This document shows, one piece after another, positions 1-10,750 of a DNA stretch of 10,826 nucleotides. The translations under genes and the position numbers were made by a program. Position 1 is the first letter of the stretch. Every line of letters starts with the position of its first letter. The stretch lies in assembly GCA_049966395.1 (NCBI GenBank), contig JBMFUT010000005.1, positions 12,212 through 23,037 of the forward strand, given 5' to 3'. Source of the stretch: Candidatus Micrarchaeia archaeon (lineage in GTDB: Archaea; Micrarchaeota; Micrarchaeia; Micrarchaeales; CABMGC01). The notes under the pieces are model-generated. The model saw only the letters and a list, made by a program, of their open reading frames with translations, ran no database searches and was not told the DNA's origin.

Positions 1-90
1 TTGGCGTGCATTTAGAACGCCGAATATCAATGCAAATACAAATGTTGCCAAAATGATGCGCAACGCAAATTCAAATTTTTTCCCTGTCAT
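1..90 (-). CDS. 5' end of a secreted or membrane protein, partial (runs off the left edge); not in the ORF track
   Basis: ATG at 90-88 overlaps the TGA (89-87) of the 351-aa gene (ATGA overlap). The frame is open to the edge: MTGKKFEFALRIILATFVFALIFGVLNARQ, a basic N-terminus followed by a hydrophobic stretch, typical of a signal peptide. Confidence 0.8.
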   Translation of the reverse strand, partial: MTGKKFEFALRIILATFVFALIFGVLNARQ

Positions 91-1142
91 ACAATCCTAC
101 TCAGCATTGAGAGAAGGTCTATCTTCTCCCCTATAGCCCTTGAAAAATCAATTATAAAAATATCTGTTATGACGAAATTTATGAAAGGTATGAGGAACAA
201 TCCAAGCCCCACTATTCCTATGTATATCATGAACCATTCAACAGAGGCATAGGCGAGTATGGCAGACACCAAGCCTGCCACCGTTGCAGCGCCAAAGCTA
301 AAGAATGCGGCTATTATTGATATTACTATCGATATTACGTCTGCAATTAGCGTAGGGGCAAATTGGCCGTATGCATAAGTGAGGGCGTTGTCTATGAAGC
401 CGTAGGTTATTGCAACAAGCATTGGATAGACAAATCCCAAGCCTATGGCAAACGCTATTGCGGCTCCGCCGAATGTTCTGGTAACGCCGAACATCCTCGC
501 TATGAGCCCTATTGCCATGAAAACTGAGAAGAAAAGCAGGGAAGTGCTTATTAGCAGAAGCTGCACCTGATTGAGCACTACGCCCATTGCCAGACCGTTG
601 AGTATCGTACCCATCGACTTTGACATCAGCAATGGTATTATTTCCAGAGCTCCAGATATTCCGAAGCCATTCAAACCTGGTATGAAATTTATCGCGAAGT
701 CCACATTTGGCACGAATGCGAATATTATCGCTATTGCAAACATGTAGTTGTTGGCAACGTCTATGGCATCGTTGTTGAATGTGTAGACATCACATAACGC
801 AATTCCATAGAGTGTGCCAGTAGAGCCGCAGTTGCCAGGTATTAAGCCTACGCTGTTGAGTGCCGGCGCTGGGTTAACGTTGCACAATAGCGTGCTGAAT
901 GCACCGAATATCGATATAAGCACGAGCGAGAGCAGTATGGCATAAATCTGGTAGCGCGTCCAGTTCTTTATATCGGTGCGACCCATGAGCGGGCTTAGCA
1001 CATAGATTATGCCAAGTATTCCTATTACTGCGATTGCTACTGCTGAAACTGCAGGAAACCACGCTGTGTATGGCGATGTAAGAAAGCCTTTTACGCTGCT
1101 TACACAGCTGCTCTGCAGAAGAAATATTGTATTTATCATCAT
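87..1142 (-). CDS. CedA/VirB6-like polytopic membrane protein, paralog 5 (351 aa)
   Basis: Long ORF with ATGA overlaps at both ends. It carries the family N-hairpin (LGIIY..IKNWTRYQ), core motif GLIARMFGVTRTFGGAAIAFAIGLGFVYP (423-509) and C-terminal FSRAIG. The CDS is secure; the CedA/VirB6 label is by recalled motif similarity. Confidence 0.65.
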   Translation of the reverse strand: MMINTIFLLQSSCVSSVKGFLTSPYTAWFPAVSAVAIAVIGILGIIYVLSPLMGRTDIKNWTRYQIYAILLSLVLISIFGAFSTLLCNVNPAPALNSVGLIPGNCGSTGTLYGIALCDVYTFNNDAIDVANNYMFAIAIIFAFVPNVDFAINFIPGLNGFGISGALEIIPLLMSKSMGTILNGLAMGVVLNQVQLLLISTSLLFFSVFMAIGLIARMFGVTRTFGGAAIAFAIGLGFVYPMLVAITYGFIDNALTYAYGQFAPTLIADVISIVISIIAAFFSFGAATVAGLVSAILAYASVEWFMIYIGIVGLGLFLIPFINFVITDIFIIDFSRAIGEKIDLLSMLSRIV

Positions 1143-2254
1143 ATCAGCTTTTGGAATATGCTCCCTCCTCTGCCCCTAAACGCTGGAGCGCCGAGAAGCT
1201 GGGCAAATGCCTCCAGCGAATCGTAGGCGATTATGAAAGCTATTGAAATGCCTATGAGTGCAAATGAGTACGACGCTACCATAGCCCCTACAAAGCCACC
1301 TATCATAAGATTGAATATAGAAAATCCGAAGCTTGTAAATAGTGATGCCACCCCGCCAAAGAAAGATATCGCCCCCGTCAGTGCGTTGTTGACGTTTATT
1401 GAAATTAGGGAGAAAGGATACACGAGTGCAGGGAAGATTATGTAGAAAGATATGAACAGGGCGAGAAATGCGCCGCCTGCGGCGCGTGTCCAAGGGAATG
1501 CCCTGAGAATTACGCCTAGGTAGAGAAAGATTGGAAATAGGAAGTATATTATGAAAGTGAGGAATACCATCAGCAACGTGAGCACGTATAGTGTAATGCT
1601 CACAAAGAACAAGCTAGAGAAAACTATTGATATTGGGGTCATGCCATTGAGTGGCATCATCGATATGCCAAAGTTGTTTGGCATGATGTTCAGGGAGAGG
1701 CCTGAAACTGCATTCAAAAGTTCTAGCTGTATAAGGCCCCCGATGGCGTTGCCTAGGAATGTATAGAAATAGCCGGCGAAGTTGTTGCATATTGATGTGT
1801 AGAATTCCAGAGTGCTTGAAGGCATTACTAATGGGGATATTGTTATTGAAGATGTGCTGGCGGTGCTTAATGAAGACATCCCGAAATTCGCAATCTGCAT
1901 TACGAAAACTATGCCATTGAATGCTATGGCAGTACTGCCGATAATAGTGGCTATTATGAGTATGTTGGCAGCCTGCTCTGCTATTTCCCTCTTAACGTAG
2001 TTGGTGATGGAGTCTATCCTCATTGAATAGCCTATCGCATATGCAATCCCCATGACGCTAAGCACAGCCAGTATTATCAGCAGGGCGATGTCAAGCATTC
2101 CAGTGTAAGTAGAGCTGTCAGTAATGTATTGGGCGTTGCCATTGCCCATTTGCGAGGGGATGCTATAAAGATTGGAGCACAACTGCGCCTTGGAAACGTT
2201 TACTAGCAGCACTGCTAAGAAGAATGTGAGGAGTGCAATGCGTTTGTAATCCAT
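1139..2254 (-). CDS. CedA/VirB6-like polytopic membrane protein, paralog 4 (371 aa)
   Basis: Signal peptide ending SKA|Q; N-hairpin MGIAY..ITNYVKRE; core motif GVILRAFPWTRAAGGAFLALFISFYIIFP (1430-1516); C-terminal FAQLLG. The start is preceded by GGTGTAAGG. Confidence 0.65.
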   Translation of the reverse strand: MDYKRIALLTFFLAVLLVNVSKAQLCSNLYSIPSQMGNGNAQYITDSSTYTGMLDIALLIILAVLSVMGIAYAIGYSMRIDSITNYVKREIAEQAANILIIATIIGSTAIAFNGIVFVMQIANFGMSSLSTASTSSITISPLVMPSSTLEFYTSICNNFAGYFYTFLGNAIGGLIQLELLNAVSGLSLNIMPNNFGISMMPLNGMTPISIVFSSLFFVSITLYVLTLLMVFLTFIIYFLFPIFLYLGVILRAFPWTRAAGGAFLALFISFYIIFPALVYPFSLISINVNNALTGAISFFGGVASLFTSFGFSIFNLMIGGFVGAMVASYSFALIGISIAFIIAYDSLEAFAQLLGAPAFRGRGGSIFQKLI

Positions 2255-2256
2255 CC

Positions 2257-3657
2257 TTACACCAGATTTCCTATTCCGAGGAGGTTAGTGTCGCCTCCGA
2301 ACAGTTGTGAGAGTCCTTTTAGCGCAGCCAGAGCTATCAGAATGTTGAGCACAGGTATTATGAAACCTGTAACATCCATCACTCCATAGACGTTTATTAT
2401 GTTTGGAATCATCTTTGTAACTTCTGATGGCGTGCATGCAGTGTTCACCGAAGGTATTGAGCTTACAAATGCAAAGGATAGCACCTGGGCGAATATTTCG
2501 TACAAAGTATAAGGAGTCAAGTAAGGCCATGCAAAACCCACTTCTGCAGAAAGTATGTTTGGCTGCCAGCAGTTATAGTTGTTTGCAACCCAGTCGACTC
2601 TTGGGAATACGTAGAAATTCAGCGTATTGGAGCCGTATACTATCTTCTGGCCGCTGAATGTAGTTTCATTTATAACAAGCACCGGAAGGTTGCTAGCTCC
2701 TATAGGTGAGGAAGCTGCAGCACCGCCGCTGAGCGCGGCATATTCTATCAGATATATTAGAGGGAATACGCCAAACGCAATTATTGCTATTGCCATGAGC
2801 AGGCCCCCGACTTTCCTCGTTAGGAACGTCGATCTTAGTATTATGCCAGCCGCAAGCAAGTAAGGCCACGCGTAAAGTATCATTATTATCATTACCAGCT
2901 GCAGGACAAAAGACTCGAAGGTTATGTATGCGACAGATTCCAAAGGCTTGGTGACCTGCTTTATCATGTCGTACCCAGCAAGGGGAACATATGATATTTT
3001 TACATCGAAAGGCACAGGAACCCAAGGCAGGGTGCAAGCTGCAAGGTCTCCAGCAGGAAGACATATGGTGAAATATGGCGAGAATCTCGAAAGGAATCCA
3101 AGGTAGTTTTCTACTACATATAGGGAATTCAGGTTTTCCAGCGCTTGCGTTGTAAGGTTGGCAGTTATAACGTAGCTTGCGGCAAGCGGATAGTCTAACT
3201 CCACAGTGTTGCTCGGATTCTGCTGGGCGTTCTCTATAAAGCTGCATATTGCATCTGTCGGGGATTGTAATGAGTTTGCGAGATTTAGCGGTGATTTTGA
3301 AAGGTAGTTCTGGCATATGCCTGAAGGTATCGAAGGCGAGAATGCTGATGTTGAAACCGCGCTAGAAGATATGATGTAGAATATTCCTAGCAGCAATACT
3401 ACTATTATCCCAGTCCCTACCGCCTGGCCAAATTCGGTAATTGCGTTAGACTTGACCCCAGGATTGTTTACTATGACCCCTGCAAGATAGTAAATTCCGG
3501 CTATCACCATGCCTAATGTTATCGCAATGAAGATTGTAGATATCCAGTTTGTAAAAACGGAATAGTGGGTTATGAAGCTCGACTGCGCGCTTGCCATAGG
3601 AACGGCTGCAATTGCAAGCGCGAAAAGCGCTATAATTATATGCTTTGAATCTGCCAT
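2257..3657 (-). CDS. CedA/VirB6-like polytopic membrane protein, paralog 3 (466 aa, largest extramembrane loops)
   Basis: Signal peptide ending ASA|Q; N-hairpin AGIYY..VKSNAITE; core motif GIILRSTFLTRKVGGLLMAIAIIAFGVFP (2761-2847); C-terminal LSQLFGG; six Cys that fall into three local pairs. Confidence 0.65.
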   Translation of the reverse strand: MADSKHIIIALFALAIAAVPMASAQSSFITHYSVFTNWISTIFIAITLGMVIAGIYYLAGVIVNNPGVKSNAITEFGQAVGTGIIVVLLLGIFYIISSSAVSTSAFSPSIPSGICQNYLSKSPLNLANSLQSPTDAICSFIENAQQNPSNTVELDYPLAASYVITANLTTQALENLNSLYVVENYLGFLSRFSPYFTICLPAGDLAACTLPWVPVPFDVKISYVPLAGYDMIKQVTKPLESVAYITFESFVLQLVMIIMILYAWPYLLAAGIILRSTFLTRKVGGLLMAIAIIAFGVFPLIYLIEYAALSGGAAASSPIGASNLPVLVINETTFSGQKIVYGSNTLNFYVFPRVDWVANNYNCWQPNILSAEVGFAWPYLTPYTLYEIFAQVLSFAFVSSIPSVNTACTPSEVTKMIPNIINVYGVMDVTGFIIPVLNILIALAALKGLSQLFGGDTNLLGIGNLV

Positions 3658-3660
3658 GCG

Positions 3661-4860
3661 CTAACCCCAGAATGAACCTCCAGCGACGAAATTCATGCCC
3701 GAATTTAAGGCCTTGGCGAGACCTATCGAAAACGCCACCGTTATTGCAACTGCTATCGCCACCAGGAATATGCCTTCAAACATATATTCGCCGACTTGGC
3801 TTGCAATTGTAACCATAGCGCCTGGGGCGTTGAAAGGATTTATGTACTCAGAAAATGCGGAGGAGAAAAACGAAACTGGCAATGTAAAATCTAGGGGACC
3901 TGCGTCTATGTTTGTAGATCGTGATGTGAATATAGAGCTAAGCGGCAGTTTTGCTATGTTGTATGATATGTATTGAGAATATGGGTTGCAAGGGCTTACG
4001 CCGAATGTGCAGAATGTCCACCCCATTGCGTAAGAGTTGAACATTAGCATTATTGGGAATACGAAATAGAAGCCTACCGAAAGGGCGAGGAAAGAATTTG
4101 CGGCCTCCCTGAGCTTTGGACCGGCAAAAGAGAGAGACCTCATTATTAGGGCGACAGGAAGCACGACAGTAAGGGCTATCGCAGATATGAATGGCAGCAT
4201 TAGATATATGAAGAAAAGCAACCCGAAGGTTACCACTACAAGCGCTGAAAGCACATCGGTAAGCATGAGTGAGTAGCTATCGTATATTGATCCGAGATCA
4301 GGGCTCGGCCCCAGGCTTACTTCGATATTTTCCGATTCGAATATCGGGGTAAATATTCCATCTGCCGCATTAGGGTCGCCAACGACAGGATAGGGCAAAA
4401 TCGAGCCTACTAAGCCGAGCGTGTGTATTACCTCAGCGGCGATGAAAAATCCTATGGCGGCGGAGTAGATGTTGGTCATTAAGCCAACGCCCTTGTTGAA
4501 AAGCAAATTCCCTACGTAAAACTGGTCGTACTGGAATATCTGGCCATTGTACGTCTGCCCGAATTCTGAGGTTGATATCGGCCCCGCTATAGATTGGCTC
4601 AGGCTGCAAGAGAGCTGGGCAGAGCCGACAAGTATCACTATTATGAACGTGCTTATCATGCCCTGGAAGAATTCGAACCTTACAACGCCCCTTGCCTTCT
4701 CCCTTGTCCTTGTAGGGAAGAGGTTGCTTAAGGCGTAGAAGAATGCCGCTATTGACAGGCTGGCTATTATGACAATTATATTTATGTTTATCCAGTTGTT
4801 CTGGTTTATGCCACCATACGTGCATCCAGGCAAAGTTTGCATCAGCAGCGTCTCAAGCAT
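3661..4860 (-). CDS. CedA/VirB6-like polytopic membrane protein, paralog 2 (399 aa, most divergent)
   Basis: N-hairpin AAFFYALSNLFPTRTREKARGVVRFE; core motif ALIMRSLSFAGPKLREAANSFLALSVGFYFVFP (4054-4152); C-terminal LAKALNSG. The gap to the upstream stop is 8 nt and the junction reads AGGCGA. Confidence 0.6.
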   Translation of the reverse strand: MLETLLMQTLPGCTYGGINQNNWININIIVIIASLSIAAFFYALSNLFPTRTREKARGVVRFEFFQGMISTFIIVILVGSAQLSCSLSQSIAGPISTSEFGQTYNGQIFQYDQFYVGNLLFNKGVGLMTNIYSAAIGFFIAAEVIHTLGLVGSILPYPVVGDPNAADGIFTPIFESENIEVSLGPSPDLGSIYDSYSLMLTDVLSALVVVTFGLLFFIYLMLPFISAIALTVVLPVALIMRSLSFAGPKLREAANSFLALSVGFYFVFPIMLMFNSYAMGWTFCTFGVSPCNPYSQYISYNIAKLPLSSIFTSRSTNIDAGPLDFTLPVSFFSSAFSEYINPFNAPGAMVTIASQVGEYMFEGIFLVAIAVAITVAFSIGLAKALNSGMNFVAGGSFWG

Positions 4861-4868
4861 TTTTTCGC

Positions 4869-6149
4869 CTATATGAGTTTCATCCTACCGCCAAGCTGCA
4901 ATCTTATTGTCCCGCCGAGCATCTTGGCAATTGCATCGGTGGCGGGGTACACTATCATAAGATCAAGCACAAAAAGAATGATTTGAGAAAGTGAAAACAG
5001 AAGGTAGTAGTTTATGCCGTTCATCACACCATACAAATTGTCGTAAAAAAAGCTGCTCAAACCGTCAGATACGCCGGCAATTCCTGCCGCAACTCCACTA
5101 AACCAACTTGAAACGGTGTTGACAATCCCGACTAAGAGTTGTTCGAGGAGGTTAGACCCTGAATAGCTAAGGGATGTCTGAGAGTAGACAGGCAGGCTGC
5201 TCAGGAGCATTGACGAAATAGGATAGTTGAAAAATAGCAGCACCGAAGGATATAATATGCCTACTCCTATCCCTATTGCGATAAGCGTCCCCCCTATGCC
5301 CCTCAAGAAAGGAAGGGCGCGCAAGATAAGACCTATTGGAATTAGCACTACCAGCACCACTTCTATCAAATATGGAAGCATGTATATCTGTGCGTAGATT
5401 ATGAGCGTAGCTGGCGCCGCGATGAACTCCATGGCGTCGTTGAGTGCAGATTCATATTGCACAGATAGCACTGTTGAATCAAGCATTGGATTTGTGTAAG
5501 GTACTGCAATAAAGCCGAACTGCAGCGTGACCACCGGCGTTGGAGGTATCAATGGCACGGGTATGTACAAGCCTACCTTTGTGGTCCTCAGGGCGCCAAG
5601 GCCAGCAGCAAGCCCTGTCAGGTAGTCGTTTCCTTCTTCTATGTTGCAAACCACTTGGCCGCAAAGATAGTTGTTCATCACTCCGTTTACCAGGGTGCCT
5701 ACGTTGTTGTAATATGCACCGGATGAGGTGGACTGACCTGATTGCAGGCCATAAAGCGCCACCATTACGCCGCTTATTAGAGTCATAATTGCGAATATCC
5801 CTGCAATAAGCATTGTTGTTTTTCCTATCTCCCAGTATTCGCTCCTGAGCCATCCCTGCACTCCTATAGACGGGATCAATTTGCTTATGAAGTATCCTAT
5901 GGCAACCACAAGAAATGATATTGTCAATGCGAGTAGAGAAAGGGATATGGCTGCTGTAGTTATGTTGAAGCTCACGTTGCCCTGGTAAGACGTGCATTGA
6001 GAAGGCACAGTTATTCCAGGGAGTTGAGAGCAACTAGACACAAGAGAAACAGAACCTGAACTTCCCGAACCTGCATAATTAATTTTAGTGCCGAAGGCAA
6101 GCAAAAGCAGCACTACAAGCATCGCAAGCCCTAGTTTGGCACCGGTCAT
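4869..6149 (-). CDS. CedA/VirB6-like polytopic membrane protein, paralog 1 (426 aa)
   Basis: Signal peptide followed by a Gly/Ser linker; N-hairpin VAIGYFISKLIPSIGVQGWLRSE; core motif GLILRALPFLRGIGGTLIAIGIGVGILYP (5247-5333); C-terminal IAKMLGG. This is the closest of the five to crenarchaeal CedA as I recall it. Confidence 0.68.
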   Translation of the reverse strand: MTGAKLGLAMLVVLLLLAFGTKINYAGSGSSGSVSLVSSCSQLPGITVPSQCTSYQGNVSFNITTAAISLSLLALTISFLVVAIGYFISKLIPSIGVQGWLRSEYWEIGKTTMLIAGIFAIMTLISGVMVALYGLQSGQSTSSGAYYNNVGTLVNGVMNNYLCGQVVCNIEEGNDYLTGLAAGLGALRTTKVGLYIPVPLIPPTPVVTLQFGFIAVPYTNPMLDSTVLSVQYESALNDAMEFIAAPATLIIYAQIYMLPYLIEVVLVVLIPIGLILRALPFLRGIGGTLIAIGIGVGILYPSVLLFFNYPISSMLLSSLPVYSQTSLSYSGSNLLEQLLVGIVNTVSSWFSGVAAGIAGVSDGLSSFFYDNLYGVMNGINYYLLFSLSQIILFVLDLMIVYPATDAIAKMLGGTIRLQLGGRMKLI

Positions 6150-6167
6150 TTAACCTAGCATATTTAT

Positions 6168-6182
6168 TATATAAACTATAAA
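6168..6182 (-). promoter_or_regulatory. Putative archaeal TATA promoter for the five-paralog array
   Basis: The minus strand reads TTTATAG-TTTATATA in the 50-nt gap. TTTATATA (6175-6168) lies 19-26 nt upstream of the ATG at 6149, consistent with a leaderless or short-leader transcript. Confidence 0.55.
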
Positions 6183-6199
6183 TGCCTTGCTATGTTGCG

Positions 6200-6931
6200 T
6201 CAGTGTGACAGCAAAGGGAATTTTCTCATGTATGCTTCAGCTTGGAATATGACGAAATAAGGAAGCACTACGATTGAATTTATAACAAGCATTAGATACT
6301 CTGAAGCCAAGGTGCCTGTGATGTGCACAAGAAGGTAGTCTAATATGGAAACCACCATGACTGCGAGCAGAAGCCATATGACAAAATACTGCGGCGCACG
6401 CGCCATCAGGCGCATGTTGTCCTTGAAAGCCCTGCCTATGCGCTTGTCTTCTACTACTATCGCGCTTGGCACGTAGAATATGAATATGAATCCGAAAAAT
6501 CCGACAATAGAAGTAATGGCGGCCTCCGCGCCAGCATAGTAGCCTATGAAGTTTGCTATAATCAGTGCAAGTGCGTAAACTAATAGCACTACGAAAACCT
6601 TGCTTATGTAGCGTTCTATGCCCTTGAGCACCGATGAAGGAGTCTTCTTGTAGGTCTTCTTCGCCTTTACTATTAGGCTTATGGCGACAAAAGCGAAGCT
6701 TATGAAAAGCAGCGAAACGAAAAGAGATATTACTATCACTGCCAAAGAGACGGCGCTCATGTTCATTGATATGCTCGCACTCCTCAGGAATATTGCGCCC
6801 GCGCTCAGGTAAGTCGGCAGAGGCGCGAACATAGGTATGAGGAAAGCTATTGCGAATGGTATTGAGAACAGAAGCACGAAACGTATGTTCTCAGCATAAG
6901 TCGAAAAAGACTCGCTGACTATGTTTGCCAT
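6200..6931 (-). CDS. Conserved-type polytopic membrane protein (about 5-6 TM; YciC/UPF0259 or GPDPase-membrane-domain-like architecture), function unknown
   Basis: 243-aa ORF with alternating TM segments and basic loops. The segment YVPSAIVVEDKRIGRAFKDNMRLM resembles the P-x-IVVE..+...A...S..L pattern of that group. Confidence 0.55.
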   Translation of the reverse strand: MANIVSESFSTYAENIRFVLLFSIPFAIAFLIPMFAPLPTYLSAGAIFLRSASISMNMSAVSLAVIVISLFVSLLFISFAFVAISLIVKAKKTYKKTPSSVLKGIERYISKVFVVLLVYALALIIANFIGYYAGAEAAITSIVGFFGFIFIFYVPSAIVVEDKRIGRAFKDNMRLMARAPQYFVIWLLLAVMVVSILDYLLVHITGTLASEYLMLVINSIVVLPYFVIFQAEAYMRKFPLLSH

Positions 6932-6954
6932 CTTTATCAGAAATATATCTAATG

Positions 6955-6967
6955 AAACAAATAAAAA
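6955..6967 (-). terminator. Oligo-T tract (archaeal terminator-like; may double as a TATA element)
   Basis: TTTTTATTTGTTT immediately follows the TAA of the 474-aa gene. Confidence 0.4.
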
Positions 6968-8392
6968 TTAGCATGATTTGCGCGGCTCCATTACAATCCA
7001 TCCGTATTTTGAATAGCTTTGCTCATAATGCGCGATAGTTGCATTTATGATTCTAGGATATGCCAAAAACCTGTCATAGCCTTCCGGAAAAACTATCGCT
7101 CCGAAGCTGCAGTTGTCCACGCTGCTGACTATTCTAGAATCGTTCCACATTCCATGAGCCTGAAGCACCCAGAAAACGCTGGGTTCGAAGAGTATTGGCT
7201 TACCTGCAGCCACATAAACCTCAGGATCCTCTGCGAGGATAGGTCCGCTCACGTTCCTTAGCATGAAGCCTATTTTGTCCGCTGATGGCACAGTGCCGTT
7301 GTATATATAAAGCGTTTTGTAGTATGCTGAATTGAAAGCAAGCAGAAGCAGGAACATTGCCACTGTGTAAGACATTGCCACCCTTGGGTTAAGCATTTGG
7401 GTGCCTTTTGCCTTGCTATGTGATATTTCACTTGCGCCGAGTGCGGCGGCAATGCCTAAGAACGCAAGAAAAGGAGTAAAATAGACTATTGTAGCGCCGT
7501 ATTTGGCGCTGCTCAATGTTGAAATGCCAGTAACCACAAGCAGCACGCTTATCAAAGAGTTCCTCTTTTTGAAAAGGAAAAACCACCCTAGTGCAAGAAG
7601 AGCGAAAGCGGCTGAATACGTTGATTTTATGAAATCGAAAAGGTTCAGCAGGAAAATTTTAAAAAGGGCAGGGGTGATAAGTGGCAGCTCAATCACTTCC
7701 AAGATGAAGCGCCCCCCTGTCAGAGCGTTTATTGAAAATACAGCGACTGCAGAAGAAACCAAAAAAATGGCCGAAAAGCCGAGCGCAAGTTTGAAGCGGC
7801 GCTCAATAAGCAAATATATGAGCAATGCGGCGAATATCACAATGGCGCTCTGCCTGAACATGAAGGCGATGAAAAGGGAGACAGCTGCGTATGCTACCTT
7901 TTTGCCTCCAGGCTTGATCATGAGGTATACTGCAAGTAGATCGAAAGCAAGCTCTAAAAAAATTGGACTGAAAGAGGTTCCGTATTGCAGCAAGAGCGTT
8001 GAAGACAAGAAGAATGCCGTTGCAAGCGCCGCATACTTCTTGCTAGACAAATTGTTAGTTATGGCAAATATTAGAACAGAAACAGCTGCTACTGCGAAAA
8101 TATCCAAAATTTTCATATAGAAGTAAGGATTTGTCGAGACGAACTGCGGCGCAAGCATAGCAAAAGCCCTGACAAGAAGATATGAAAGAGGAGTGTAGTA
8201 AGTAAGTATGTAAGGATATGTGCTGATGCTTTTGTAAAGGATCCCAGATGTAGCTAGTATCAAAGGGTCGCTGTAATTCAATCCGTAATTCCAAAATATG
8301 GATCTGAATAGCAGCAGCAAGTTGAAAAATGACTGCGCTATTAGAATTACGGTTATTGAGCTAATTGCCATGCTTGTTTTGCCCTTCAACAA
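6968..8392 (-). CDS. GT-C fold membrane glycosyltransferase (ArnT/PMT-like, GT83/GT39-type); start probably TTG at 8389
   Basis: About 11-13 TM segments. The first external loop has YSDP...YYTPLSY (YPPL-like). It also has FRQS and SAKYGATIVYFTPF motifs and a C-terminal soluble domain with 5 N-x-S/T sequons. RBS AGGTGA is at 8399-8394. Confidence 0.7.
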   Translation of the reverse strand: MLKGKTSMAISSITVILIAQSFFNLLLLFRSIFWNYGLNYSDPLILATSGILYKSISTYPYILTYYTPLSYLLVRAFAMLAPQFVSTNPYFYMKILDIFAVAAVSVLIFAITNNLSSKKYAALATAFFLSSTLLLQYGTSFSPIFLELAFDLLAVYLMIKPGGKKVAYAAVSLFIAFMFRQSAIVIFAALLIYLLIERRFKLALGFSAIFLVSSAVAVFSINALTGGRFILEVIELPLITPALFKIFLLNLFDFIKSTYSAAFALLALGWFFLFKKRNSLISVLLVVTGISTLSSAKYGATIVYFTPFLAFLGIAAALGASEISHSKAKGTQMLNPRVAMSYTVAMFLLLLAFNSAYYKTLYIYNGTVPSADKIGFMLRNVSGPILAEDPEVYVAAGKPILFEPSVFWVLQAHGMWNDSRIVSSVDNCSFGAIVFPEGYDRFLAYPRIINATIAHYEQSYSKYGWIVMEPRKSC

Positions 8393-8393
8393 A

Positions 8394-8399
8394 TCACCT
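8394..8399 (-). promoter_or_regulatory. Shine-Dalgarno AGGTGA
   Basis: Archaeal-type SD directly after the TAG of the 627-aa gene. It lies 4 nt before TTG 8389 but only 1 nt before TTG 8392, which favours 8389 as the start. Confidence 0.65.
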
Positions 8400-8400
8400 A

Positions 8401-10284
8401 CTAGCTTGCAGCTGTCATGTTTGCATTGTAGAAGTAGTCCCCGCTGTAGATTATTGCGTCGGCAACATCTATCCTATATGCCTTCTTGGTATAGTTGCCA
8501 CTAGCCTTTGGCCAATTGATAGTAGCATTAAGGGCGTATTCGTGAACGCCTGCCTGAAGCGTTATCTTATTTACGTTCAGGAGGCACCGGTAGTCATTTG
8601 TGCTGCAGCGTTGAGGCTGTTTTATCAGACTTGAATTTCCAAAACCTGATATGTATATCGTGTTGTTGGCGTATGTGTAGAAAAACAGGTACGCCGTGGT
8701 ATTTGAATTTCCCATGTAGTGTATTTCGGCAGAATAGCGGCTCTCGTTTGACTGTGGGATCGAAATCAGGCTCTGGTTGCTTATTGATACCCCGAAATCG
8801 CTCTTGTATAAATTATGAGATGCCAGTATTGCATAAAACCCTGCAACCACTAGTAGCAATGCAACTGCTGCCACAGCAAGCCTGTGCCTCTGCAGAAAAA
8901 CTTTGCGCCTAGGCGCGGCACCTTCTTTCATGAAAAGCACTATCACCGCAAAGGCTATGAAAAAAGTGAAGTATGAGCCGAGCGCATGTGGAAACATCAG
9001 TGGCACCATGCTGAATATTGGAACTAATTTTTTCTCGTTTAAGAATGCGAAAAGAAGCACCATCAAGAGCGCAGATATAGCAAACATTGTCGTGAGGGAA
9101 GGAATTGTAACATTGTAGAGCTGCAGCAGCGGGTATCCGAATAGCGAGGATGGCAAAGGCAGCAGCAGTTTTCCTATGGGGGAGAACACGTCACGGAAAT
9201 ATGCCGTCGGGCTCGAGGCTATGAAATAGCCGTTTATCAATGCAAACACGAATATGGCGCCAAGCAGGTCGTATGCGCCGCGCCTGATGCCTTTGTTTGT
9301 GAAAGAGTATGTTATGAGTAACAGCACTGGGAGCCACAGCTCTTCCTGTATAGAAGCCGCAATGCCAAGCATTAGCCACGAATACTTGCTATCTATAGAG
9401 GCATATGCTATAAGTATCAGCGCAAGCATGAGGAATGTCTGCGTTGAGGACACTATCGCAATGGCAAAAAGCAGAAATATTATCACGCTATATCTTGGCC
9501 TGGCTATGTGCTTCTTGTCAAGAAGCAGCGCTATTGTAAGCAGGAGTATGAAAATAAATACGCCGGCTTGAATGCTCATTTCGGTAGAAAGATTTTTCAT
9601 TGTGGGTGGGAGAAGCAAATAGAAAGGCAGAAAAGATAGCATGTAAAGCGCAGGGTAGTTTATTGTGCCTATTATGTCGTTGTTTGTGGTCGGAGTATAG
9701 CTCATGTTAAGCATGTTATCGTAGACCTGCTGCGAGAAAGAAATCGCATATGGATTTGTGCCGTTTAGGAATGCCTTTGTGCTTAGGAAGCATATGTAGG
9801 CCTCGTCGTCAGGAAAGAAGTGGAAGGCGTATTCAGCAAAATAGTACAGCGATATTATCAATATAGCTGCAAAAATCAATATCAGCGCAACTTTTGTGTA
9901 CTCCTTGCCCGCTCTCAAAAGGTAAGCCCCGAACATCATGCAGAAGAGTAGTGGAAGAAACAGTATTATGTACTTACCCAGCAAAGTTCCGAGCGTAACT
10001 AATGATAGTACTTCGCCTGACCTTACAACAGGCAACATTAAAATAGGCAATAAGAAGAAAAAAACCAAAACCGATAGAGCCACAATCATTGGCATGTCGT
10101 ACTTCTTTGATGCACGGTCTTTCTGGTTTTCAAACATTCTCATTGACGCTATCGCAATAAACGAGATAGCTATAGGTATGCCACTTAATGAAGGGATATA
10201 AGAAAGGTTACCGCACTGCGCCCCAATGAACATGATAAATAAGAAGGCTGACACGAAGAAGATGCTATCGTGGCTAAGTTGCAT
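8401..10284 (-). CDS. GT-C fold membrane glycosyltransferase (GT87/PimE-like) with extra N-terminal TMs and a C-terminal extracellular domain
   Basis: External loop with DDE (9810-9802), GTNPY (9762-9748) and NYP (9660-9652), the acidic / G-x-NPY / YP pattern of GT87-like enzymes. Many TMs follow; the C-terminal ~125 aa is soluble with 8 sequons. Confidence 0.7.
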   Translation of the reverse strand: MQLSHDSIFFVSAFLFIMFIGAQCGNLSYIPSLSGIPIAISFIAIASMRMFENQKDRASKKYDMPMIVALSVLVFFFLLPILMLPVVRSGEVLSLVTLGTLLGKYIILFLPLLFCMMFGAYLLRAGKEYTKVALILIFAAILIISLYYFAEYAFHFFPDDEAYICFLSTKAFLNGTNPYAISFSQQVYDNMLNMSYTPTTNNDIIGTINYPALYMLSFLPFYLLLPPTMKNLSTEMSIQAGVFIFILLLTIALLLDKKHIARPRYSVIIFLLFAIAIVSSTQTFLMLALILIAYASIDSKYSWLMLGIAASIQEELWLPVLLLITYSFTNKGIRRGAYDLLGAIFVFALINGYFIASSPTAYFRDVFSPIGKLLLPLPSSLFGYPLLQLYNVTIPSLTTMFAISALLMVLLFAFLNEKKLVPIFSMVPLMFPHALGSYFTFFIAFAVIVLFMKEGAAPRRKVFLQRHRLAVAAVALLLVVAGFYAILASHNLYKSDFGVSISNQSLISIPQSNESRYSAEIHYMGNSNTTAYLFFYTYANNTIYISGFGNSSLIKQPQRCSTNDYRCLLNVNKITLQAGVHEYALNATINWPKASGNYTKKAYRIDVADAIIYSGDYFYNANMTAAS

Positions 10285-10305
10285 GATGATAATTAAGAGG
10301 AATAC

Positions 10306-10348
10306 AAAATAAAAAGGTTAGTTTGCCGCCACACATACGGCGGCAAAC
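10306..10348 (-). terminator. Perfect 10-bp GC-rich hairpin followed by a T tract, downstream of the pilin gene
   Basis: GTTTGCCGCC (10321-10330) pairs with GGCGGCAAAC (10339-10348) around an 8-nt loop. On the minus strand it is followed after 5 nt by TTTTTATTTT (10315-10306). Confidence 0.8.
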
Positions 10349-10373
10349 GAAATTTTTCGGCTTACCCGTAGCT

Positions 10374-10697
10374 TCATATTCCTTGTATTAAGCCTACGAG
10401 GTAAGGGGCAATCAATACTAGGATCAATCCCACTATTGAACCTATGATCATACCCATTGCCCAGCCCTGCATGTTTGCCTTTATCTGTCCTGCTGCAGGC
10501 AGGAAATGCGCTGCGGCGTAGAGGACGCCTCCTACCATGAAGAGTGCTATGGCGAACACGCCGATTACAGTCTGCACTATTGATACTATGCTCTGGAATA
10601 CAGAACTGAGCAACGATGCCGCTTGAGCAAACGCTAGAGAACTTATCTGTGACACTAAAAGCAGTGAAACCAGCAGTTTCAGATAATTTATTTTCAT
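10374..10697 (-). CDS. VirB2/TrbC/CedA1-type pilin-like protein (107 aa)
   Basis: 24-aa signal ending AFA|Q, then an amphipathic helix (LLSSVFQSIVSIVQ), TM1, a short loop (YAAAHFLPAAGQIKANMQGW) and TM2 (MIIGSIVGLILVLIAPYLV). This is the size and layout of conjugative-type pilins. The gene has its own promoter, RBS and 3' hairpin. Confidence 0.75.
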   Translation of the reverse strand: MKINYLKLLVSLLLVSQISSLAFAQAASLLSSVFQSIVSIVQTVIGVFAIALFMVGGVLYAAAHFLPAAGQIKANMQGWAMGMIIGSIVGLILVLIAPYLVGLIQGI

Positions 10698-10702
10698 GTA
10701 TA

Positions 10703-10706
10703 CACC
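10703..10706 (-). promoter_or_regulatory. Shine-Dalgarno GGTG for the pilin
   Basis: The minus strand reads TTGGTGTATAC-ATG; GGTG is 5 nt upstream of ATG 10697. Confidence 0.55.
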
Positions 10707-10735
10707 AATGTCGCATTTTAATATATTGCTATTGA

Positions 10736-10750
10736 TTTAAATAGCTTTCG
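10736..10750 (-). promoter_or_regulatory. Archaeal BRE-TATA promoter of the pilin gene
   Basis: The minus strand reads CGAAAGC-TATTTAAA, a purine-rich BRE directly before a TATA box, 39-46 nt upstream of the ATG. This predicts a short 5' leader that contains the SD. Confidence 0.7.

Follow-up and report, generated by a model that had tools for sequence, protein, structure and literature searches.

Which machinery is encoded by a block of nine co-oriented genes in the small genome of a Candidatus Micrarchaeia archaeon is the question that this locus raises. The block fills a stretch of 10,826 nucleotides, referred to here as the window, which corresponds to C5:12212-23037 (C5 being contig JBMFUT010000005.1 of assembly GCA_049966395.1) in a genome of 693,655 bases, 34 contigs and 89% completeness. 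The original prediction, made from the sequence alone, had proposed a conduit related to the Ced system and to type IV secretion systems (T4SS), differently built and with a multiplied channel subunit. This proposal is supported by the analysis presented here, through the predicted fold of the channel subunit, which is closest to TrwI of R388, the finding of an ATPase, and the co-occurrence of pilin and channel genes in relatives. We thus consider it quite probable that this chromosomal operon encodes a domesticated relative of the T4SS, Ced and Ted machinery. Three components, arranged in the gene order of a minimal T4SS, each point to a T4SS counterpart, and together they form a chromosomal set that is passed on vertically and occurs widely in Micrarchaeota.

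The nine long open reading frames (ORFs) span positions 87-10697 of the window, on the minus strand throughout, and code, in gene order, for proteins of 107, 627, 474, 243, 426, 399, 466, 371 and 351 amino acids (aa). The genes are separated by 89, 8, 36, 50, 8, 3 and 2 bases, followed by a 4-base overlap, and the GC content is even along the window, at 0.42-0.47. All nine proteins contain at least two 19-residue windows with a mean Kyte-Doolittle hydropathy of 1.6 or more, as expected from the earlier description of co-oriented genes for membrane or secreted proteins only, while the ATPase encoded downstream contains none. The window covers the first two thirds, counted from the promoter, of an operon that comprises 17 genes and about 19 kb (C5 ~3.7-22.9 kb) and runs on a single strand.

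The first gene of this operon encodes a protein of 107 aa (10374..10697, minus strand), whose description as a pilin-shaped protein heading the locus is borne out, and which is best understood as a VirB2-like pilin precursor. Its sequence and an alignment of six orthologues display an N-terminus resembling a signal peptide, followed by two hydrophobic helices that a short polar loop, containing a basic residue, connects. The protein matches the Pfam model PF18895 (T4SS_pilin) with an E-value of 4.7e-5 and 23.8 bits, the curated cut-off being 26.6 bits. Moreover, when the profile of the six orthologues was searched against 177,635 distinct PDB sequences with E up to 10, the best match was TrwL, the VirB2 protein of R388 (8s6h), with E 0.01. 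At E up to 0.1, three of the six orthologues match PF18895 and two match TrbC (PF04956), the latter reaching only E 0.03-0.04. The pilin is reported to be related to the N-terminus of the channel protein in the pairs VirB2/VirB6 and CedA1/CedA (PMC9905601). A comparable kinship is suggestive in the Micrarchaeota sequences, where hhalign aligns the pilin with the paralogue N-terminus over 31 columns (probability 36.5%, E 3.7e-4) and the pilin profile also matches one channel paralogue of the relative G014 (E 1e-4), but it is not significant.

Some variation was observed among these pilins. The C-terminus of the protein in the window (10374-10420) is about 7-14 residues shorter than that of four array-linked orthologues in relatives, which have a Gly/Ser/Thr-rich tail with a terminal Cys in three of the four and a penultimate Cys in the fourth; past the stop codon of the window's gene, no alternative frame yields such a tail. 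The pilin copy encoded on another contig of the same genome (G000), C2, differs from the tailed orthologues as well. In the relative G030, a pilin-like domain is found in a 687-aa protein adjoining the pilin (L037:20869-22932, minus strand; E 8.8e-24 to the pilin profile), and in G017 several pilin-profile matches fall within open frames of 147-509 aa (G017:C1:62202-73815). These long ORFs may encode pilin-fused tip or adhesin proteins.

The opposite end of the window is taken by five polytopic proteins, all encoded on the minus strand: VirB6-like paralogue 1 (426 aa, 4869..6149) and paralogue 2 (399 aa, 3661..4860), both assigned by the family profile and by clade support (100/100 and 100/99, respectively); paralogue 3 (466 aa, 2257..3657) and paralogue 4 (371 aa, 1139..2254), assigned by family profile, synteny and tree; and paralogue 5 (351 aa, 87..1142), whose start shares 4 bases with the stop of paralogue 4 and which is the copy chosen for modelling. 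Their mutual identity is only 20-23%, and pairwise phmmer searches connect just some of them, the 399-aa and 351-aa proteins matching nothing but themselves. Their kinship is accepted here because they share a motif (G-L-I-x-R, then T-R-x-x-G-G, then Pro, with invariant Arg, Arg and Pro), because a profile built from the five reaches a sixth and a seventh copy in the genome, at C5:11137-12222 (E 4.3e-14) and on contig C2 (E 4.6e-19), and because of the family tree. The sixth copy lies on the same strand directly downstream of the window, which is flanked by runs of 100 N at C5:12112-12211 and C5:23038-23137, the first of them hiding the N-terminus of this paralogue. Thus, the five proteins said to close the locus are indeed related, but they do not close it: there are six tandem copies, and the operon continues past base 1. 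When a profile of 24 sequences was run against 1.84 billion proteins, 3239 representatives were retrieved at E up to 0.001.

The link between these paralogues and VirB6 comes from their predicted fold. An AlphaFold2 model of the 351-aa copy, computed from 87 sequences, has a predicted local distance difference test score (pLDDT) of 81.8 and a predicted template modelling score (pTM) of 0.75. When this model was compared by Foldseek with 350,542 PDB chains, TrwI, the VirB6 protein of R388, took ranks 1-3 (best E 0.16, probability 0.91, template modelling (TM) score 0.32-0.39). In a second look with VIA, the TrwI chains obtained Z values of 9.3, 8.7 and 8.6 against 6.9 for the next unrelated row, the Z 9.3 match aligning 240 residues to a 261-residue chain with a root-mean-square deviation (rmsd) of 7.0. 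A wide VIA search among 48,161 representatives, which is independent of Foldseek, ranked TrwI first again (Z 8.3, rmsd 6.4, 245 residues aligned; next unrelated row Z 7.3), with DotA of the Dot/Icm T4SS at rank 7 (Z 6.5). Altogether, TrwI is covered over 240-252 residues of chains of 261-272 residues, with Z 1.0-2.4 above the next unrelated row. Since the notes of the tool warn that a Z under about 13 in helical proteins can reflect a common arrangement, we count this evidence as repeated and consistent but modest, and describe the predicted fold as closest to VirB6. The structural check suggested with the original prediction therefore points, with modest Z values, to VirB6 rather than to an ABC permease or a flippase, and of the claim of five CedA/VirB6-like subunits, the VirB6-like fold finds modest support and the count needs correction. 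A complex prediction for paralogues 4 and 5, with alignments for each, gave a score of 0.25 against a mark of 0.32 in a run with no controls, and has no bearing on binding.

The third component is a soluble ATPase of 501 aa, encoded on the same strand about 2.9 kb beyond the left edge of the window, so that the genome search for a VirB4/HerA-like ATPase proposed at the outset met with success. This HerA/VirB4-like protein matches the Pfam families DUF87 (3.5e-18), AAA_10 (6.8e-14) and TraG P-loop (3.6e-10). In the PDB, it is related to HerA proteins, the best with 5e-12, and to 4ag5, a VirB4-like chain (5e-8 over residues 57-335, which covers most of the ATPase domain), and its matches in PHROG are generic, of the HerA/terminase type. 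Just after it, a protein of 98 aa (L016:7509-7805 in G000 C5, minus strand) resembles the C-terminal tail of the ATPase, and its orthologues in four relatives match the ATPase with E 3e-6 to 5e-11. From these similarities, it looks like a small domain that is kept both fused to the ATPase and free.

The arrangement of these genes was compared in six relatives from two families of the order. The six paralogues stand at the locus in identical order, as one-to-one orthologues, in all six genomes, as do both of the coiled-coil proteins encoded between the array and the ATPase. The ATPase gene adjoins the array in five of the six, lying about 128 kb away in G017. The pilin heads the locus in five too, as had been anticipated for a pilin and an array that belong together, its genes being on other contigs in G014. 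The remaining window genes are less constant, with the 243-aa protein found at the locus in four relatives, the 627-aa enzyme in three, and the 474-aa enzyme in none. A topoisomerase VI B gene stands at the ATPase end in five of the six and a MoxR gene beside the pilin in one.

In a tree of 43 rows, made up of the six copies from each of seven genomes and the copy on C2 (masked X residues were stripped from one row), the paralogues form six clades with one member per genome each and 100% ultrafast bootstrap. The group labels of this tree were taken from the best phmmer matches and are not independent of sequence similarity, but neither the clades, with their single member from each genome, nor the fixed gene order depends on it. 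The six copies are accordingly read, on the tree, as six ancient orthologue groups. Since these clades follow the genome families, the set is vertically inherited. Beyond these genomes, the paralogue family is found in 39 of 41 relatives and, across the phylum, in 135 of 151 genomes (119 of the 133 of high quality), tallies that include G038, a genome flagged as unpublished; the 16 of 151 genomes with no match belong mostly to families f10, f11 and f15. Of 80 loci with close relatives of the ATPase, 71 come from Micrarchaeota or their subgroups (counted under the names Micrarchaeia, Micrarchaeales, Micrarchaeaceae and Micrarchaeum), four from Marsarchaeota, four from records named 'archaeon' and one from a bacterium. 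This distribution agrees with the early guess of a Micrarchaeota-like member of the DPANN archaea, as does the taxon of the Atlas cluster of the 627-aa protein, which is labelled Microcaldota.

The number of paralogue-profile matches per genome is about 7-8 in most of the window's order. Most genomes having the family in other families of the class (G041-G158) show at least 12-13 such matches, and these genomes may carry two arrays.

A simpler T4SS-like locus is present in the same genome, on the plus strand at C2:61473-64724 (L018:5173-8424). It comprises a pilin of 126 aa (PF18895 8.8e-5, TrbC 0.04), a single 354-aa paralogue of the array family (the seventh copy mentioned above), a 239-aa protein, and a 361-aa ATPase of the DUF87/AAA_10 type with a TrwB_AAD_bind stretch. 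Beyond this set, there are further HerA-like ATPases (762 and 574 aa) and then an Nre gene. Elsewhere on this contig, two neighbouring ORFs (C2:57580-58734; 167 and 170 aa) are identical to each other over an N-terminal stretch of 50 residues or more, which recurs in a 226-aa ORF just before them (C2:56802-57482).

Several observations weigh against a relationship with T4SS. None of 87 members of the paralogue family matches any T4SS Pfam model or other relevant Pfam family, TrbL/VirB6 included (E up to 0.01); a genome search with PF04610 (TrbL/VirB6) is negative at E up to 1; and the paralogue profile draws a blank among the PDB sequences, where its best hit is a G-protein-coupled receptor at E 3. 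The fold match itself is modest in its Z (8.3-9.3), E-value (0.16) and TM score (0.32-0.39). The Pfam score of the pilin is below the curated cut-off of PF18895, and no T4SS_pilin-type match above that cut-off was obtained in a search of the whole genome. Apart from TrwL, the pilin profile retrieves just two subunits of calcium channels, and the pilins solved for Ced and Ted, CedA1 (8DFU) and TedC (8DFT) (PMC11823120), are absent at E up to 10, so that of the relatives named for this protein in the original prediction, VirB2 was recovered as TrwL by sequence profile and CedA1 and TedC were not. Ced and Ted pilins are themselves mutually dissimilar in sequence (PMC9905601). Finally, the ATPase scores higher against HerA than against the VirB4-like chain 4ag5, and the N-terminal domain of VirB4 (PF03135) was not found in the genome, which is 89% complete.

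Several of these observations are in line with the main rival explanation, a new envelope machine whose likeness to T4SS is merely architectural. In such a machine, a HerA-type ATPase would work with a helical-bundle complex not homologous to VirB6, the two-helix protein would be a membrane subunit instead of a pilin, and the product could be a device for the assembly or remodelling of the S-layer or envelope. The paralogues without a sequence-level link to VirB6, Z values below the level at which helical matches become reliable, the HerA proteins as best solved relatives of an ATPase in which the VirB4 N-domain was not found, and the GT-C-type glycosyltransferases embedded in the operon would all fit this explanation. 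It does not account as readily for the fact that three components separately match the T4SS counterparts expected from gene order, with the pilin leading to T4SS_pilin and TrwL, the paralogue to TrwI as first of 48,161 representatives, and the ATPase to AAA_10, TraG P-loop and 4ag5, nor for the recurrence of the trio of pilin, paralogue and ATPase in the C2 locus. We therefore hold the envelope machine to be unlikely, and the T4SS relative to be the better reading.

The genes between pilin and array suggest another explanation, in which the locus would be a pathway for surface glycans or lipid-linked sugars. The first of them encodes a polytopic protein of 627 aa (8401..10284, minus strand) with no Pfam match, whose neighbours in the Atlas, by features and structure, are clusters of GT87, MptA_B, ALG3 and 'RgtA/B/C/D-like' proteins. 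An acidic motif in the first outer loop marks GT-C enzymes; in the first loop of this protein, an acidic Asp-Asp-Glu precedes a conserved Asn-Pro-Tyr, with Asp160 and Glu161 invariant in three orthologues. The protein contains 13 N-x-S/T sites, in which its C-terminal domain is rich. Of the 151 genomes of the phylum, 34 encode it (18 of 24 from the family of the window, 15 of 46 from its sister family, and none of 80 elsewhere), and by hand comparison of coordinates its best match lies within 5 kb of an array member in at least 15 of the 33 other genomes, which makes it a recurrent accessory gene of the locus. The second, of 474 aa (6968..8392, minus strand, with a TTG start), matches PMT_2 with E 0.0057 and 17.3 bits (cut-off 26.1), and its structural neighbours in the Atlas, with TM 0.82-0.87, are all bacterial PMT_2, ArnT or GT39-type clusters. 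The nearest clusters come entirely or almost entirely from bacteria, among them Chloroflexota, Pseudomonadota and Actinomycetota. The gene is present in two of 151 genomes including this one, the other match being weak and partial (6.8e-7), and is a lineage-specific insert, possibly acquired horizontally. The original call of two glycosyltransferases is consistent with these matches, both proteins being GT-C-like by their Atlas neighbours, neither reaching a curated cut-off. The idea that they are diverged duplicates was rejected because hhalign gave a probability of 1.4%.

The third gene encodes a 243-aa polytopic membrane protein (6200..6931, minus strand), the best conserved component of the window. 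It has 198 homologues at E up to 0.001, the best 120 of which are 53-100% identical over 98-100% of the length, whereas orthologues of the paralogues in relatives are only about 30-45% identical. Most of these 120 measure 242-250 aa, with a full range of 239-303. Nearly all are named 'hypothetical protein', mostly in Micrarchaeota records, and three have JGI automatic names, two as Ste14-type methyltransferase and one as permease of the major facilitator superfamily. Its AlphaFold2 model (pLDDT 78.6) has only weak fold matches, to PNS1, a choline-transporter-like protein (E 0.67, probability 0.91), and to CysZ (E 0.96), on which no family is assigned to it.

If the locus served glycan synthesis, its core would be the GT-C enzymes and the paralogues would act as flippases or permeases. 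The presence of two such enzymes, the position of the 627-aa gene near the array in those 15 or more genomes, and the transporter-like matches of the 243-aa protein speak for it. Nevertheless, the GT-C genes are dispensable (34 and 2 of 151 genomes) in comparison with the array (135 of 151), the 627-aa enzyme is absent from all 80 genomes outside the two families, and no flippase or ABC family is found among the above-background fold matches of the modelled paralogue. This makes the glycan pathway a distinctly improbable explanation.

A self-transferring integrated conjugative element or plasmid remnant, even though its component set would be of T4SS type and archaeal conjugative plasmids do occur without recognisable relaxases (PMC9905601), is very improbable given the recurring chromosomal neighbours (topoisomerase VI B in five of six relatives, MoxR in one), the vertical orthologue clades of a family found in 135 of 151 genomes, the even GC content of the window, and the fact that neither contig nor genome yielded a match to an integrase, a relaxase or a coupling protein. 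This last result covers the relaxase family PF03432 and the coupling-protein family PF02534 (VirD4), neither with a genome match at E up to 1, other relaxase families having been left unsearched; only weak TrwB_AAD_bind stretches are present, in ATPases of the C2 locus.

As a relative of T4SS, the Micrarchaeota operon can be placed among systems already described. With Ced (Sulfolobales, Aeropyrum) and Ted (Thermoproteales), it shares the status of a chromosomal, domesticated archaeal derivative of T4SS that has no relaxase and combines a pilin of the VirB2 kind with a polytopic protein likened to VirB6 and an ATPase resembling HerA/VirB4 (PMC9905601, PMC11823120). Those systems consist of CedA/TedA, CedA1/TedC, CedB/TedB and CedD (PMC9905601, PMC11823120), some Ced systems having a second channel paralogue, CedE (PMC11823120), and their motor gene can sit apart from the channel genes, as happens here in G017 at about 128 kb. 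In contrast to Ced and Ted, the Micrarchaeota locus has six tandem channel paralogues, in six orthologue groups, with a seventh in a second locus. It adds two coiled-coil membrane proteins, the conserved 243-aa protein and GT-C enzymes, its pilin has a cleavable-looking signal peptide and a sequence nearer to VirB2/TrwL than to the solved CedA1 and TedC, and it is carried by a DPANN symbiont whose genome measures about 0.7 Mb.

VirB6 of R388 is the product of a single gene and forms a homo-pentamer, whereas six different genes stand at the Micrarchaeota locus. The Trw system of R388 (PDB 7o3v, 8rt9, 8rtd and 8s6h; TrwL/VirB2, TrwI/VirB6 and TrwK/VirB4) is the machine in which both the pilin and the modelled paralogue have their closest relatives of solved structure. 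Contrary to that system, Pfam scans of the operon proteins, to which the search for these parts was confined, gave no match to VirB5 or VirB7-11, and the genome has no match to PF02534, PF03432 or PF03135.

The T4SS of Patescibacteria, or candidate phyla radiation (CPR), is similar in being reduced and widespread in the chromosomes of ultra-small, host-dependent cells (PMC12102498). The VirB2-like pilins of CPR were found with PF18895 too, and virB6 was reported to be essential for the growth of one epibiont strain (PMC12102498). Nonetheless, they belong to the other domain of life and have one VirB6 and a VirB4 recognised by hidden Markov models (PMC12102498), whereas the putative channel in Micrarchaeota is sextuplicated and PF04610 (TrbL) and PF03135 are unmatched. 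Within DPANN, T4SS-type ATPases have been proposed to act on the host in the case of the giant 'SPEARE' proteins of nanohaloarchaea (PMC10266531). These differ in having a giant Ig-repeat protein fused to a VirB4/TraG-like ATPase and a second ATPase that bears PF03135, and no pilin or VirB6 array is described for them in the retrieved passages of that paper (PMC10266531).

Regarding novelty, a full-text literature search, with subscription journals and supplements outside its coverage, returned no description of a T4SS-like or Ced-like system in Micrarchaeota, and the six orthologue groups of the channel subunit have no described counterpart in the portions of the literature examined.

Other features of the operon complete its description. 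Two TATA-like boxes rich in A/T, at 10736-10743 and 10716-10726 on the minus strand, precede the start of the pilin gene and are a candidate archaeal promoter, the nearer of which would be compatible with a leaderless or short-leader mRNA. Between the pilin and 627-aa genes, a G+C-rich hairpin (10325-10344) followed by a T-run (10306-10315), on the minus strand (whole element 10306..10344), is a possible attenuator that would keep the pilin mRNA in excess. An ORF of 132 aa (10318..10716) was treated as spurious, since it lies across the pilin gene in a different frame of that strand. Searches of NCBIfam and PHROGs returned nothing useful for the nine window proteins.

Downstream of the sixth paralogue and on the same strand, proteins of 279 and 275 aa each consist of an N-terminal hydrophobic hairpin and a coiled coil, these being the two coiled-coil proteins conserved in the relatives. 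The downstream part of the operon further encodes, on that strand, a 144-aa protein with a hydrophobic stretch and a Cys pattern that, by eye from the translation, is zinc-ribbon-like, a 240-aa coiled-coil protein, and a protein of 797 aa that is anchored at its N-terminus and contains 23 N-x-S/T sites. No match was found in PDB sequence searches for the 797-aa, 275-aa and 279-aa proteins. The operon is bordered by the topoisomerase VI B gene on one side and by genes for a MoxR ATPase, Rpb4 and DUF655 on the other. Among sequencing runs, the shares of sampled words matched were small, at 0.15 and 0.10 in two rows and close to nil (0.02) in a third row from the same sample, and no RNA run was among the matches listed.

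How such an apparatus may work can be proposed from its parts. The six paralogues would form a membrane platform or channel, probably with one copy of each, to which the two coiled-coil proteins would tether the hexamer of the ATPase. The ATPase would then power the step in which pilin leaves the membrane and polymerises to form a short pilus or conduit, and it might also move a substrate through. Both GT-C enzymes would glycosylate exposed parts of the apparatus or the surrounding envelope, using lipid-linked sugars at the outer face. Regarding its role, contact with neighbouring cells, either host or kin, and the uptake of DNA or other material would be the most likely one, plasmid conjugation being less likely. 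In a bolder version of this proposal, which we consider possible but doubtful, the paralogues would build a hetero-hexameric VirB6-like ring, with one subunit of each kind, matched to the six-fold ATPase, and a glycosylated VirB2-type pilus carried by this ring would serve as a conduit into Thermoplasmatales hosts for DNA, nucleotides or lipids. If that were true, no earlier case of a symbiosis organelle derived from T4SS would be known in Archaea, and the organelle would independently parallel the T4SS needed by ultra-small Patescibacteria for epibiotic growth.

That the channel subunit is multiplied sixfold is of relevance to the construction of VirB6-type platforms, and the GT-C genes hint at a glycosylated apparatus, or glycosylated surroundings, in some lineages. 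The operon has the same three core parts as conjugation machinery, Ced and Ted, and therefore represents a defined candidate gene set for cell contact, the uptake of DNA or nutrients, and pilus formation. Micrarchaeota and other DPANN archaea with tiny genomes depend on other cells, and this locus is a concrete candidate for the connection between them.

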